Part shown: piece after piece, positions 53,836 to 59,624 of the stretch
How the letters are laid out: each line of letters begins with the position of its first letter
Position numbering within the stretch: the stretch's first letter is position 1
Assembly (NCBI RefSeq): GCF_963921235.1
Contig: NC_086108.1
Coordinates: forward strand, 26,040,001 to 26,104,000
Length of the DNA: 64,000 bases
Origin: Mobula hypostoma
Lineage: Eukaryota
Direction: 5' to 3'
The notes under the pieces: model-generated
What the model saw: only the letters and a program-made list of their open reading frames with translations
What the model was told of the DNA's origin: nothing
Databases searched by the model: none
Position numbers and translations under genes: made by a program

Positions 53836-55618
53836 ACTTTTAAGTTTGGTGTGCAGCTTGTATCATCTAAAATGTAGTTCTTGGAATATGGAAGAGATTA
53901 TATCTTTACTTCCATGACAGCAAACAGAAGCAAAGGTACAAAGTACAAAGGTACAAAAGTAAACATCCTGTATACAGGACAGAAAGAGTGATGTGCAAGA
54001 AATTACGGGAAAATTTGGTGAGATATCAAGATCTGAAACTGTAAGTACAAATCTGACAAACATAACATCTTCTCAAAGCCTCAACTCTAATACAGTCCGT
54101 GCACTCAAGCACAATCAGGTACAACAGGGATTTAAAAAAAGACTAGCAATCATTCAAAAGATGCATTAGAAATCACTGTACCACCTACAGATTCATGTGC
54201 AGATGGACTGTTGCTTGGCAGAAAGGATAGAATTATCAAATAGAATAAAATTTTGATTCGGGATCAACTCCATGTGAAGCTAACCTGAAATTGATGGATA
54301 ATCCAAATTTATTTAGATCTGATCTTGTTTTAGTAAAGTCCTTGGTTATGATATGTCAGTGTTGCACCTCTCAGGTGTAGGCATCAGCTCCATCAAACAA
54401 TTCAGAGAATTATTTAGCAATTTTTGCAGGAAGGCAGCGGTTGATTTCACCAGTGTTATTCAGCTCATACATTTCCTAGTTTTCTTGGTTGCTAAGACTT
54501 TGAAAAGCTCTTACTGCACCTGCAGCATTTAGGAACAGCAGTGATAAAAGTTTACAGCATTCTCATAAAAGATTAAAAATCTTATTGCAGGCTGGAGGAT
54601 AGTTCCTTTCTAATGACTTCACTGCAGAAAGACGATTAGCTGCGATGAGATAGGTTTCATTTCCCATTGTTGACACCTGGAACCGTCACATTAACTTACG
54701 AATAATATGGAACACAGATTATTACAGGAATCTCTTTATCATTTCCTCTTGAGACAATGAGGCTTAAGTTTCAGAAAGCAGAACTGTTTCAGTTAATGTC
54801 TCCTCTTGTTGTTTTGAGGCAACTTTTTTTTGTTATTGATATTGATTACTGATCATTTCCAGTTATTGAATAAATTATGAGGAAATTAAATAAATGCAAA
54901 CAGGTCCTCCCCAAGTATGGCAAACTTCCACTGTCTGTTACCTGGACACTACGCAAGTTGGAAATGCCACCATTCACTGAGTTCCCAGGTGGGAGAAGAT
55001 GCACAGCAGCCAGCAAATCTATGCTGCTGATCTCCCAAATGCTCAGTTGTATGTATGGATTGTACATAGATTGGGCATTTGTAGCAAATGGTGGACCTGT
55101 GTATACAAATTCTGGGTGTTGTCCTCTTCATTGGTAGGAGTCTTCCCTTTTATTATAGATCTCCACATCAAATTTCCCTTTGAATGCTACTTAAAGCAAA
55201 TCAAGATGAAAGAGTTAATTTTCAAATATATGACAAAATTAAATTGTTAAAAAACAGTCCCCAGTAAAACTCTAATAATTTGGCACCTAATTGTTCAGAA
55301 ATCTTGCTGTAGCTACTTCACCGAATATTCCCAAGTATGAACCAGGTTTCCAGATGCACAGTCAGAGCCAGGGTGGAGGTCTATGAATGCAGAAGGGTTT
55401 GTGGCTGGAATCAGGGTTCAGAACCCTGTACATTTCTCACTCCCTTTAAAATCACCAGGTTCACTGGAAATTGAGGGTTTGGATATTAACAGGAGAAGTA
55501 GTTTTAAGGACACTGGATTATATCTAAACATTCCTGTATTTGGAAAGCAATAATGTTCTGTGAAATGATTTTGGAGTGGAAACTTTGATACCTCCATTTA
55601 GAACAACTCCCTTTCTAG

Positions 55619-55896
55619 GAGCTAGGAAGGGCGTTGAGAAAAAGGACCACAAAGGTAGTAATCTCGGGATTACTGCCTGTGCCACGTGACAGTGAGAGTA
55701 GGAATGCGATGAGGTGAAGGATAAATGCGTGGCTGAGGGATTGGAGCGGGGGCAGGGATTCAAGCTTTTGGATCATTGGGACCTCTTTTGGCACAGGCGT
55801 GACCTGTACAAAAAGGACGGGTTACACTTGAATCCCAGGGGGACCAATATCCTGGCAGGGAGATTAGCGGGGGCTACTGAGGTGACTTTAAACTAG
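55619..55896 (+). pseudogene. CR1 ORF1 C-terminus (SGNH esterase-like), with one stop and one frameshift
   Basis: VVISGLLPVPR..R*RINAWLRDW, then a frame change to GFKLLDHW..LYKKDGLHLNPRGTNILA..TLN*. Confidence 0.88.
55887..55893 (+). promoter_or_regulatory. Putative -1 frameshift slippery site T_TTA_AAC
   Basis: X_XXY_YYZ heptamer in the ORF1 frame, directly before the ORF1 TAG; the -1 frame is ORF2. Confidence 0.55.
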
Positions 55897-55901
55897 AATG
55901 G

Positions 55902-58900
55902 TTGCGGGGTTGGAATCAAATTAAAGAGGCTAGGCGTGAGGAGGTTAGTTCACAACAGAGGGATGGGAACCAGTGCAGAGAGACAGAGGGGTGTAAAGTG
56001 AGCGTAGAAGCAAAAAGTACAAAGGAGAAAAGTAAAAGTGGCAGGCCGACAAATCCAGGGCAAGCATTAAAAAGGGCCACTTTTCAACATAATTGTACAA
56101 GGGCTAAGAGAGTTGTAAAAGAGTGCCTGAAGGCTTTATGTGTCAATGCAAGGAGCATTCATAATAAGGTGGATGAATTGAAAGTGCAGATTGTTATTAA
56201 TGATTATGATATAGTCGGGATCACAGAGACAAGGCTCCAGGGTGACCAGGGATGGGAACTCAACGTTCAGGGATATTCAATATTCAGGAGGGATAGACAT
56301 GAAGGAAGGGGAGGTGGGGTGGCGTTGCTGGTTAAAGAAGAGATTGACGCAATAGAAAGGAAGGACATAAGCCGGGAAGATGTGGAATCGATATGGGTAG
56401 AGCTGCGTAACACTAAGGGGCAGAAGACGCTGGTGGGAGTTGTGTACAGGCCACCTAACAGTAGTAGTGAGGTCAGAGATGGTATTAAACAGGAAATTAG
56501 AAATGTGTGCAATAAAGGAACAGCAGTTATAATGGGTGACTTCAATCTACATGTAGACTGGGTGAACCAAATTGGTAAAGGTGCTGAGGAAGAGGATTTC
56601 TTGGAATGTATGCGGGATGGTTTTTTGAACCAACATGTCGAGGAACCGACTAGAGAGCAGGCTATTCTGGACTGGGTTTTGAGCAATGAGGAAGGGTTAA
56701 TTAGCGATCTTGTCATGAGAGGCCCCTTGGGTAACAGTGACCATAATATGGTGGAATTCTTCATTAATATGGAGAGTGACATAGTTAATTCAGAAACAAA
56801 GGTTCTGAACTTAAAGAGGGGTAACTTTGAAGGTATGAGACGTGAGTTATCTAAGATAGACTGGCAAATGACACTTAAAGAATTGACGGTGGATATGCAA
56901 TGGCAAGCATTTAAAGGTTGCATGGATGAACTACAACAATTGTTCACCCCAGTTTGGCAAAAGAATAAATCAAGGAAGGTAGTGCACCCGTGGCTGACAA
57001 GAGAAATTAGGGATAGTATCAATTCCAAAGAAGTAGCATACAAATTAGCCAGAGAAAGTGGCTCACCTGAGGACTGGGAGAAATTCAGAGTTCAGCAGAG
57101 GAGGACAAAGGGCTTAATTAGGAAGGGGGAAAAAGATTATGAGAGAAAACTGGCAGAGAACATAAAAACGGACTGTAAAAGCTTTTATAGATATGTAAAA
57201 AGGAAAAGACTGGTAAAGACAAATGTAGGTCCCCTGCAGACAGAAACAGGTGAATTGATTATGGGGAGCAAGGACATGGCAGACCAATTGAATAATTACT
57301 TTGGTTCTGTCTTCACTAAGGAGGACATAAATAATCTTCCAGAAATAGTAAGGGACAGAGGGTCCAGTGAGATGGAGGAACTGAGTGAAATACATGTTAG
57401 TAGGGAAGTGGTGTTAGGTAAATTGAAGGGATTGAAGGCAGATAAATCCCCAGGGCCAGATGGTCTGCATCCTAGAGTGCTTAAGGAAGTAGCCCAAGAA
57501 ATAGTGGATGCATTAGTGACAATTTTTCAAAACTCGTTAGATTCTGGACTAGTTCCTGAGGATTGGAGGGTGGCTAATGTAACCCCAATTTTTAAAAAAG
57601 GAGGGAGAGAGAAACCGGGGAATTATAGACCGGTTAGCCTAACGTCGGTGGTGGGGAAACTGCTGGAGTCAGTTATCAAGGATGTGATAACAGCACATTT
57701 GGAAAGCGGAGAAATGATCGGACAAAGTCAGCATGGATTTGTGAAAGGAAAATCATGTCTGACGAATCTCATAGAATTTTTTGAGGATGTAACTAGTAGA
57801 GTGGATAGGGGAGAACCAGTGGATGTGGTATATTTGGATTTTCAAAAGGCTTTTGACAAGGTTCCACACAGGAGATTAGTGTGCAAACTTAAAGCACACG
57901 GTATTGGGGGTAAGGTATTGGTGTGGGTGGAGAATTGGTTAGCAGACAGGAAGCAAAGAGTGGGAATAAACGGGACCTTTTCAGAATGGCAGGCGGTGAC
58001 TAGTGGGGTACCGCAAGGCTCAGTGCTGGGACCCCAGTTGTTTACAATATATATTAATGACTTGGATGAGGGAATTAAATGCAGCATCTCCAAGTTTGCG
58101 GATGACACGAAGCTGGGTGGCAGTGTTAGCAGTGAGGAGGATGCTAAGAGGATGCAGGGTGACTTGGATAGGTTGGGTGAGTGGGCAAACTCATGGCAGA
58201 TGCAATTTAATGTGGATAAATGTGAAGTTATCCATTTTGGTGGCAAAAATAGGAAAACAGATTATTATCTGAATGGTGGCCGATTAGGAAAATGGAAGGT
58301 GCAACGAGACCTGGGTGTCATTATACACCAGTCATTGAAAGTGGGCATGCAGGTACAGCAGGCGGTGAAAAAGGCGAATGGTATGCTGGCATTTATAGCG
58401 AGAGGATTCGAGTACAGGAGCAGAGAGGTACTTCTGCAGTTGTACAAGGCCTTGGTGAGACCACACCTTGAGTATTGTGTGCAGTTTTGGTCCCCTAATC
58501 TGAGGAAAGACATCTTTGCCATAGAGGGAGTACAAAGAAGGTTCACCAGATTGATTCCTGGGATGGCAGGACTTTCATATGAAGAAAGACTGGATGAACT
58601 GGGCTTGTACTCGTTGGAATTTAGAAGATTGAGGGGGGATCTGACTGAAACGTATAAAATCCTAAAGGGATTGGACAGGCTAGATGCAGGAAGATTGTTC
58701 CCGATGTTGGGGAAGTCCAGAACGAGGGGTCACAGTTTGAGGATAGAGGGGAAGCCTTTTAGGACCGAGATTAGGAAAAACTTCTTCACACAGAGAGTGG
58801 TGAATCTGTGGAATTCTCTGCCACAGGAAACAGTTGAGGCCAGTTCATTGGCTATGTTTAAGAGGGAGTTAGATATGGCCCTTGTGGCTACAGGGGTCAG

Positions 58901-58934
58901 GGGGTATGGAGGGAAGGCTGGGGCGGGGTTCTGA
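55902..58934 (+). CDS. CR1 ORF2: APE endonuclease and reverse transcriptase, 1010 aa, uninterrupted
   Basis: NARS, ITET, YRPP, GDFN, SDHN; PGPDG, NYRPVSL, QHGF, DFQKAFD, PQGS, FADD; frame opens at 55881 and the first AUG is at 56532. Confidence 0.97.
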   Translation: MRGWNQIKEARREEVSSQQRDGNQCRETEGCKVSVEAKSTKEKSKSGRPTNPGQALKRATFQHNCTRAKRVVKECLKALCVNARSIHNKVDELKVQIVINDYDIVGITETRLQGDQGWELNVQGYSIFRRDRHEGRGGGVALLVKEEIDAIERKDISREDVESIWVELRNTKGQKTLVGVVYRPPNSSSEVRDGIKQEIRNVCNKGTAVIMGDFNLHVDWVNQIGKGAEEEDFLECMRDGFLNQHVEEPTREQAILDWVLSNEEGLISDLVMRGPLGNSDHNMVEFFINMESDIVNSETKVLNLKRGNFEGMRRELSKIDWQMTLKELTVDMQWQAFKGCMDELQQLFTPVWQKNKSRKVVHPWLTREIRDSINSKEVAYKLARESGSPEDWEKFRVQQRRTKGLIRKGEKDYERKLAENIKTDCKSFYRYVKRKRLVKTNVGPLQTETGELIMGSKDMADQLNNYFGSVFTKEDINNLPEIVRDRGSSEMEELSEIHVSREVVLGKLKGLKADKSPGPDGLHPRVLKEVAQEIVDALVTIFQNSLDSGLVPEDWRVANVTPIFKKGGREKPGNYRPVSLTSVVGKLLESVIKDVITAHLESGEMIGQSQHGFVKGKSCLTNLIEFFEDVTSRVDRGEPVDVVYLDFQKAFDKVPHRRLVCKLKAHGIGGKVLVWVENWLADRKQRVGINGTFSEWQAVTSGVPQGSVLGPQLFTIYINDLDEGIKCSISKFADDTKLGGSVSSEEDAKRMQGDLDRLGEWANSWQMQFNVDKCEVIHFGGKNRKTDYYLNGGRLGKWKVQRDLGVIIHQSLKVGMQVQQAVKKANGMLAFIARGFEYRSREVLLQLYKALVRPHLEYCVQFWSPNLRKDIFAIEGVQRRFTRLIPGMAGLSYEERLDELGLYSLEFRRLRGDLTETYKILKGLDRLDAGRLFPMLGKSRTRGHSLRIEGKPFRTEIRKNFFTQRVVNLWNSLPQETVEASSLAMFKRELDMALVATGVRGYGGKAGAGF

Positions 58935-59624
58935 GTTGCATGATCAGCCATGATCATAATAAATGGCGGTGCAGGCTCGAAGGGCTGAATGGCCTACTCC
59001 TGCACCTATTTTCTATGTTTCTATGTTTCTGACAAATTCTATTTACTTCAAGGAGAAGCAGATTAATAATGGAAGTTTTGGAATGATTTTGCCTTTCACC
59101 AAAAAGACCAGCAACCAATGCCGATATTTAAATATTTGTGCAGATCAATTATATAAGGAAATGGAGAATATTAACACAGAAATCCAGCCATATCTAAAGA
59201 ATACAGAGGGGAGGCAGAAGACACTGGTGAACATATTGAACTTCTACTGAAACAATGATTGCATTTCTCCATACATACATATACACATACATGCTGAACT
59301 TTATGAGACAATGCAATGTTCAGGGAATAATCTTTAAAATCTTCGTCAGTGTTTACTTTTTAGCTATTCTTACATGTTAAATTTATATATCTGGTCATAT
59401 AATATTGCCTTTTCCAGGTCATTTCCAATTTCATTAACGCAAGTATCTATATTTTTGTCAATCCTGGACTTCCATAGAATCTGTTAAAAGGTCGCTCTAT
59501 TGATAACATCAAAAAGATGTGGTGACCAATCTGTTTTGACCTGTCTATATGTTTTACAGCCTAGCAGTTTAACATTGAAAAATACTGGCTCATAAGCAGC
59601 ACATCCATCTAAAACTTAAGGTTA

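Follow-up and report, generated by a model that had tools for sequence, protein, structure and literature searches.

How is the second open reading frame (ORF2) of a CR1-type long interspersed nuclear element (LINE) translated when no start codon stands in front of its first domain? The question is raised by an element within a 64,000-nucleotide stretch of the Mobula hypostoma genome (NC_086108.1, positions 26,040,001 to 26,104,000 of the forward strand). This whole stretch is called the window here, and positions are numbered from its first letter. Esterase-type CR1 LINEs are the dominant retrotransposons of many vertebrates. Passages of three reviews (PMC3708506, PMC5009743, PMC5381506) describe the way in which ORF2 of LINEs is translated as unclear. 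From the letters at the junction between ORF1 and ORF2, we conclude that this junction is probably a programmed -1 frameshift site yielding an ORF1-ORF2 fusion. An earlier note on this DNA had suggested such a fusion. Two checks bear directly on that suggestion, namely whether the slippery heptamer varies freely at synonymous positions and whether an AUG lies upstream of the endonuclease; as judged from sequence comparison, the outcome of both favours the fusion.

In the window, the ORF1 frame reads ...GGG GCT ACT GAG GTG ACT TTA AAC TAG at the junction. Four features define the layout; family A denotes the family of the window copy, and the representatives are 15 junctions chosen from divergent lineages.

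55878-55880, forward strand: TGA stop of the ORF2 (-1) frame, two codons 5' of the putative slip site; kept in 58/58 family A copies
55887-55893, forward strand: candidate slippery heptamer T_TTA_AAC (TTTAAAC), X_XXY_YYZ in the ORF1 register
55894-55896, forward strand: ORF1 stop TAG, abutting the heptamer; TAG or TAA in this place in 15/15 representatives
55881..58934, forward strand: ORF2 frame, -1 relative to ORF1, 1017 codons plus stop, no ATG before codon 218

The two frames overlap by 16 nt. Re-reading of the window letters confirmed the layout given in the earlier note in each of its parts (the TGA, the register of the heptamer, the TAG, the -1 position of ORF2 and the length of the overlap). 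The first ORF2-frame ATG was also correctly placed at 56532, inside the endonuclease domain, where it encodes the M of AVIMGDFN; its codon number, given as 211, is 218 when counted from 55881. Stop-codon readthrough was ruled out, because ORF2 does not lie in the ORF1 frame. Transcriptional slippage is unlikely as well, since the site is no homopolymer run.

The genome searched has 200 contigs with 3.48 Gb in total. When its DNA was searched with the junction as query, 40 matches with 98-100% identity were obtained, from at least 900 first-look candidates, and no junction indel was present in 30 near-identical family A loci. Among the 58 family A copies, TTTAAAC was found in 56/58 and TAG likewise in 56/58, and the upstream TGA of the -1 frame was kept in every copy. 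Because the same layout recurs across the copies of family A, the geometry is not an artefact of one decayed copy.

Further families were found by a Pfam search and by searches with divergent ORF1 proteins of other species, the query proteins being 39-61% identical to family A. First-look candidates for an esterase ORF1 in this genome were extremely numerous (29,326 for PF13472, and 64,149 to 129,733 per single ORF1 protein). Eight CR1 families (A-H) in this genome carry the signal. All of them read NNT TTA AAC TAR, where R is a purine, with ORF2 in the -1 frame, and the seven families other than A are as follows.

Family B: codon before the heptamer's TTA AAC is AGT, stop TAG; the final 256 nt of its ORF1 are 81-84% identical to those of family A
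Family C: codon GCT, stop TAA, with TTA AAC between
Family D: codon GGT, stop TAA, with TTA AAC between
Family E: codon GGT, stop TAA, with TTA AAC between
Family F: codon GGT, stop TAG, with TTA AAC between
Family G: codon GAT, stop TAG, with TTA AAC between
Family H: codon GGT, stop TAG, with TTA AAC between

Among copies with an indel-free, readable junction, the heptamer was intact in 26/31 of family B, 7/11 of family C, 20/24 of family D and 6/7 of family E, and the misses were scattered single substitutions in old copies. The frame of the endonuclease was set by direct translation from the heptamer; the starts of tblastn high-scoring segment pairs are unreliable in decayed copies. The endonuclease of every family is in the -1 frame, which in most representatives has a stop 1-8 codons 5' of the heptamer. 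One frameshifted copy of family F and three copies (37 open codons) of a distant lineage from metagenome contigs, which is described below, depart from this pattern. Read on downstream from the heptamer, several lineages have copies with 400 to 558 open codons in the -1 frame; in the other two frames a stop is reached within 0-34 codons. Some family B copies carry a TGA ten codons into the -1 frame. As most copies read CGA there, this TGA is a product of CpG decay and no feature of the family.

Further evidence comes from the codons themselves. As a codon control, the last 27 ORF1 codons of the 15 representatives were aligned. The terminal Leu codon was TTA in 15/15 and the terminal Asn codon was AAC in 15/15. 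The codon preceding them (codon -3) ended in T in 14/15, though its residue may be T, S, A, G, D or C, and T_TTA_AAC stood in the ORF1 register in 14/15 representatives, locus L145 being the exception. The Leu columns used as controls, at -22, -14 and -10, showed four to five different codons (including CTG, TTG, CTT and CTA at -22, and CTG, CTA, CTT and TTG at -14), and Ala -13 was written with all four of its codons. Within the 57 codons upstream, taken as background, TTA accounted for 9/105 Leu codons and AAC for 12/40 Asn codons, and T made up 26% of third positions. Even when just four lineages are counted as independent, the joint probability of the heptamer codons is about 2e-9. Hence the heptamer is conserved beyond amino-acid constraint, with no free synonymous variation, and the -1 geometry, for which the frame of the endonuclease was checked, is conserved across all lineages examined. 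The junction signal is real and conserved, and it is more than chance.

These counts also bear on the simplest alternative, namely that the heptamer arose by chance or through a protein-level constraint on the C-terminal Leu-Asn of ORF1. In the protein alignment, Leu-Asn is indeed as conserved as the catalytic residues, and for one family alone a canonical heptamer would fall within the 16-nt overlap in roughly 1 of 100 cases by our estimate. Protein constraint, however, does not fix codons, as the uniform TTA and AAC against their mixed background indicate, and codon -3 varies in its residue but not in its last base. We regard this alternative as hardly credible.

A distant lineage gave the same picture. 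Metagenome contigs were scanned with an ORF1 profile built from a 13-protein alignment, and 34 loci were obtained. Identity to the head of the elasmobranch profile is 29-36% for the loci that extend to the ORF1 end (29-53% for all 34). The lineage is amniote-type; its closest database relative is protein P0115, followed by squamate proteins at 39-53%. The end of ORF1 is contained in 13 loci, of which 12 have the letters TTTAAACTAG and the remaining one, L145, has GTTAAACTAG. For ten of them there is a same-strand endonuclease match, and in 8/10 the endonuclease is in the -1 frame. When 11 junctions of this lineage were aligned, all ten columns of TTTAAACTAG were invariant and GGGGGAAGGGGA was invariant or nearly so; the bases between these two elements, and most of the sequence 3' of them, were variable.

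Database proteins could be compared at the level of the ORF1 C-terminus. A Leu-Asn (LN) end was present in 76/85 ORF1 homologues with a natural C-terminus, recognised by the last esterase block lying near the end, and the hosts of these proteins are rays, skates, sharks, coelacanth, frogs, turtles, lizards and a snake. For 74/76, the genetic code offers a T-ending codon for the residue that precedes LN. In a 36-protein ORF1 alignment with a mean column identity of 31%, the terminal Asn is invariant. Two database gene models follow the -1 frame across the junction and give ...GFKLNLQGAGIQ... (...GFKLN...) and ...DFKLDRLGGG.... With FKL as the -1 reading and LN as the 0-frame reading, the letters are fixed as T TTA AA(C/T). 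A search for tetrapod gene models fusing ORF1 and ORF2, made with a turtle ORF1 query, returned one chimeric Ig-domain model only. Four public runs, which come from three studies and carry four organism codes, supplied contigs for alignment at 80% likeness. These contigs showed no variant at or above 10% at 55884-55904 and 19 variable places at 55812-55883; being relatives of families A and B, they lend weaker support. A listing of the public sequencing runs that contain the sequence included no RNA run.

Two further groups of database records deserve mention. Proteins P0112, P0119, P0113 and P0116 are distant esterase ORF1 products that end in ...QGN or ...EFFR, not in LN. The QGN ends would fit a G_GGA_AAC heptamer; in this genome, a search for QGN-type ORF1 with P0112 as query found merely family D-like copies at 36-47% identity. 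In addition, CR1 ORF1 sequence is misnamed in the public proteins P0020, P0026, P0062, P0064 and P0118, under names such as 'Pseudomonas aeruginosa SGNH hydrolase', '40S ribosomal protein S24', 'transmembrane protein 204' and 'ABHD14A-like' isoforms. These records are likely contamination or chimeric gene models.

A second conserved element stands 3' of the heptamer. It is a recurrent G-tract of the form GGGGG(G)-N1-2-GGG(G). In a set of 18 representatives, a run of at least four G begins 10 nt past the heptamer in 15/18, at 9 nt in family C and in M147, and at 7 nt in L145. In the window copy this element has decayed.

55904..55913, forward strand: G-tract element, decayed in the window copy; GCGGGGTTGG here against GGGGGGTGGG in most family copies

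The substitutions of the window copy lie at 55905 and 55911, where other copies have G and where G is the majority base in all four public runs. Read in the -1 frame, the tract encodes G-x-G-(N/D), and its first Gly codon is GGG wherever the tract is in register. Family C has kept the tract at a one-base offset from the frame. Conservation of this kind points to a constraint at the RNA level; a constraint on the N-terminus of ORF2 would also be possible.

The G-tract is the place where a different role of the conserved RNA has to be considered. The ten conserved bases and the G-tract might form an element for binding of the ORF1 protein, for packaging or for stability, with ORF2 reached by an unrelated route and the heptamer being incidental. 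The retention of the tract at the nucleotide level, both in family C and in the GGG codon, would suit such a role, as would the failure to find a standard frameshift stimulator (see below). Yet the conserved letters are precisely the best-studied eukaryotic slippery heptamer in its only working register, they lie within the few codons that allow a productive -1 shift, and the seven bases between the ORF1 stop and the G-tract vary freely. An element with another role is therefore improbable in our judgement.

The absence of a usable start codon was then considered. No conserved in-frame AUG was found upstream of the endonuclease in families A-E and in the metagenome lineage, as the earlier note had reported for the window. 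The first in-frame ATG of family A is codon 216 in 36/58 copies and codon 207 in 5/58, and in these 41/58 it lies inside the endonuclease domain, with none before it. The linker of family B has no in-frame ATG in most copies. Nor does any ORF2-frame start overlap or abut the ORF1 stop in the manner of SART1.

Length variants occur in the linker between the junction and the endonuclease. An in-frame deletion of 27 nt (about 56078-56104) is common to the family A copies L043, L054, L059 and L060 and marks a subfamily. The position of the first ATG at codon 207 instead of 216 agrees with this variant, which was seen in 4 copies, and an in-frame deletion would fit a translated linker. In family D, four of 13 copies (L106, L110, L111 and L118) are without one unit of a 16-nt tandem duplication, 16 or 17 nt being missing. 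This deletion breaks the -1 frame, and the long form is present in a copy with 502 open codons; slippage may have produced such deletions repeatedly. In the window, the linker segment ...RPTNPGQ... (56052-56063) was considered as a 2A-like skipping signal. It resembles NPG and is without the final Pro, which we take to be part of the 2A motif, so that coincidence is probable and this candidate was rejected.

Several observations weigh against a programmed frameshift. An in-frame ATG does stand between the heptamer and the endonuclease at codon 39 in family D and at codon 19 in family E, about 13 codons 3' of the heptamer in several family C copies, and at codon 5 in 6/12 copies of the metagenome lineage; an independent start of ORF2 at such ATGs is possible in some lineages. 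Locus L145 has G_TTA_AAC in place of the canonical heptamer. Two database ORF1 proteins end in ELN, for which no T-ending codon before the heptamer is possible, and four others end in QGN or FFR. As for a stimulator, RNAfold of 55887-56010 gave z = -0.25 with no stimulatory structure, and RNAalifold on the 11 metagenome-lineage junctions gave 4 pairs (CUAG/CUAG) with no compensatory change. No defensible conserved hairpin was found with these two programs, pseudoknots not having been searched with a dedicated program, and the earlier note's failure to see a stimulatory hairpin by eye was upheld. A two-tier G-quadruplex was predicted in just 3/18 representatives (ViennaRNA with G-quadruplex energies). 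Structured frameshift stimulators usually lie 5-9 nt downstream of the slip site. No stimulatory structure was found at this canonical distance, and the G-tract at 10 nt is beyond it. Finally, according to passages of PMC5009743 and PMC3708506, human L1 ORF2 is translated both without an AUG and without frameshifting, and an ORF2 that has no AUG is thus in itself no proof of a frameshift.

The main rival explanation builds on such cases. In termination-coupled reinitiation, or with a non-AUG start, ribosomes would end at the UAR stop and some of them would begin anew in the -1 frame a short distance away. On this reading, the conserved UUUAAAC-UAR-(N7)-G-tract would be a signal for restart or tethering rather than a slip site. 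The G-tract holds UGGGA in families A, B and D, and UGGGA is the core of motif 1 of the calicivirus termination upstream ribosomal binding site (TURBS). ORF2 opens right at the ORF1 stop, the in-frame ATG in 6/12 metagenome-lineage copies lies 4 codons past the heptamer, and restart mechanisms are documented in other LINEs in passages of PMC3708506 and PMC5381506. Restart, however, leaves TTA, AAC and the T-ending codon -3 unexplained, the latter being kept across six different residues. The position of that nearby ATG encodes W, L, V or P in families A, B, D, E, F, G and H, none of which has an ATG there. The ATG at 55898, which directly follows the ORF1 stop in the window (UAGAAUG in family A), is in the wrong frame for this purpose. 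It lies in the third (+1) frame and opens a mini-ORF of 8 codons (55898-55924), and family B has ATT there, so the mini-ORF is not conserved. Moreover, the TURBS motifs known so far are located upstream of the stop and not, like the G-tract, downstream. We consider restart unlikely on balance, while giving it more weight than the other alternatives.

If the junction is a programmed -1 frameshift site, a fraction of the ribosomes translating ORF1 would slip back by one base at U_UUA_AAC, where tRNA-Leu and tRNA-Asn would re-pair from UUA_AAC to UUU_AAA. Translation would resume with CUA, and the junction peptide predicted for family A is ...T-L-N-L-E-W-L.... Slipping may be made more efficient by the adjacent stop, by the G-tract or by both, perhaps with the help of a bound protein. 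ORF2, which contains the endonuclease and the reverse transcriptase, would be made as an ORF1-ORF2 fusion resembling Gag-Pol, and a low rate of slipping would set a low ratio of ORF2 to ORF1.

A broader version of this mechanism can be offered tentatively, and it is more doubtful than the frameshift itself. Esterase CR1 LINEs might have used a Gag-Pol-like -1 frameshift since before the split of cartilaginous fish and amniotes, by means of U_UUA_AAC, an abutting stop and a linear, protein-bound G-tract at 10 nt, with no pseudoknot. The protein binding the G-tract could be a host protein or the element's own ORF1 protein. In the latter case, the level of ORF1 protein could feed back on the synthesis of ORF2.

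A close parallel is viral. U_UUA_AAC is the slippery heptamer of the coronavirus ORF1a/1b junction. As at retroviral and coronaviral -1 sites, the CR1 junction has this kind of heptamer (identical in letters and register), a downstream ORF in the -1 frame without a conserved start, and synonymous conservation of the heptamer; the predicted product would likewise be a low-frequency fusion of a structural protein to a polymerase. Unlike these sites, the CR1 junction has no hairpin or pseudoknot found 5-9 nt downstream by RNAfold and RNAalifold, its 0-frame stop always abuts the heptamer, and it carries a linear G-tract at 10 nt. Its host element is a retrotransposon of the non-LTR kind (lacking long terminal repeats), not a virus. 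The frameshift sites of porcine reproductive and respiratory syndrome virus (PRRSV, an arterivirus with a C-rich motif) and of cardioviruses are stimulated by proteins, with the element about 10-14 nt downstream, and the PRRSV motif is linear. The downstream element of CR1 is similar in its longer spacing and its linear form. In contrast to the C-rich motif of PRRSV, the CR1 motif is G-rich and has no known binding protein.

Among LINEs, frameshifting as a mechanism is not new, because TRE5-A and TRE3-A of Dictyostelium need a -1 frameshift for ORF2 according to passages of the review PMC5911963. These are also non-LTR elements with an apurinic-type (APE-type) endonuclease; they belong to another clade and another host and have an unrelated ORF1. 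SART1 of Bombyx, with its UAAUG stop-start, and human L1 are bicistronic, and in both ORF2 has to be entered by ribosomes that translated ORF1 before (passages of PMC3708506 and PMC5009743). CR1 differs from both in having no overlapping stop-start AUG, two ORFs in different frames with a canonical heptamer, and no conserved AUG.

A full-text literature search found no paper linking CR1 to frameshifting or to UUUAAAC, with Haas 1997, Kajikawa 1997 and Kapitonov and Jurka 2003 lying outside its scope. In the portions of text covered, the vertebrate CR1 survey PMC13343379 (2026) makes no mention of frameshift, overlap, translation, start codon or slippery, and the recoding review PMC5009743 (2016) treats non-LTR frameshifting only by way of the HeT-A gag; its discussion of TART and L1 makes no link to frameshifting. 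The CR1 junction signal has apparently been undescribed so far; an earlier mention in the early CR1 papers is possible.

Should the frameshift be real, a major vertebrate LINE clade would solve the translation of ORF2 as retroviruses do, by a fusion protein. Such a fusion would tie the polymerase to the assembly of the ORF1 protein and would fix the ratio of the two. Annotators would gain a rule for joining CR1 ORF1 and ORF2, and the short list of non-viral -1 signals would gain an old and widespread member from cellular genomes, possibly with a new type of stimulator. The idea is directly testable with a short reporter.

The element around the junction comprises four further parts in the window.

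55618..55896, forward strand: ORF1 remnant, the 3' part of a GDSL-esterase gene that is broken and 5'-truncated, with homology to full-length copies from 55618 on
56184..56744, forward strand: apurinic-type endonuclease domain of ORF2 (PF03372 Exo_endo_phos, residues 102-288, E 9.8e-12)
57594..58256, forward strand: reverse transcriptase domain of ORF2 (PF00078 RVT_1, residues 572-792, E 9.9e-34)
59006..59030, forward strand: short tandem repeat of 8 nt, (CTATGTTT) x 3.2, interpreted as the 3' tail of the element, a repeat instead of poly(A)

In full-length copies, ORF1 encodes 311 amino acids with a Cys-rich N-terminus followed by a GDSL esterase (PF13472, E 7.5e-16, Pfam). The description of ORF1 as an esterase gene in the earlier note holds for these copies; the window copy retains a remnant only, whose frame is open for just 64 codons before the TAG. 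The window copy is a dead, 5'-truncated relic that preserves the junction signal. An octamer repeat at the 3' end is a hallmark of CR1 elements. The order of the ORF2 domains, an APE-type endonuclease and then a reverse transcriptase, agrees with a CR1-clade LINE. The relatives of ORF1, together with C-terminal ORF2 motifs, suggest a CR1-type LINE. Passages of the survey PMC13343379 report poly(A) tails in Zenon only, and esterase ORF1 as the sole ORF1 type identified among its recovered CR1 and L2 lineages.

Elsewhere in the genome, junctions of two families were found side by side. At locus L096 (G000:C63:12875716-12879651), a family C junction and a family H junction lie about 1 kb apart on the same strand, which suggests adjacent or nested insertions.

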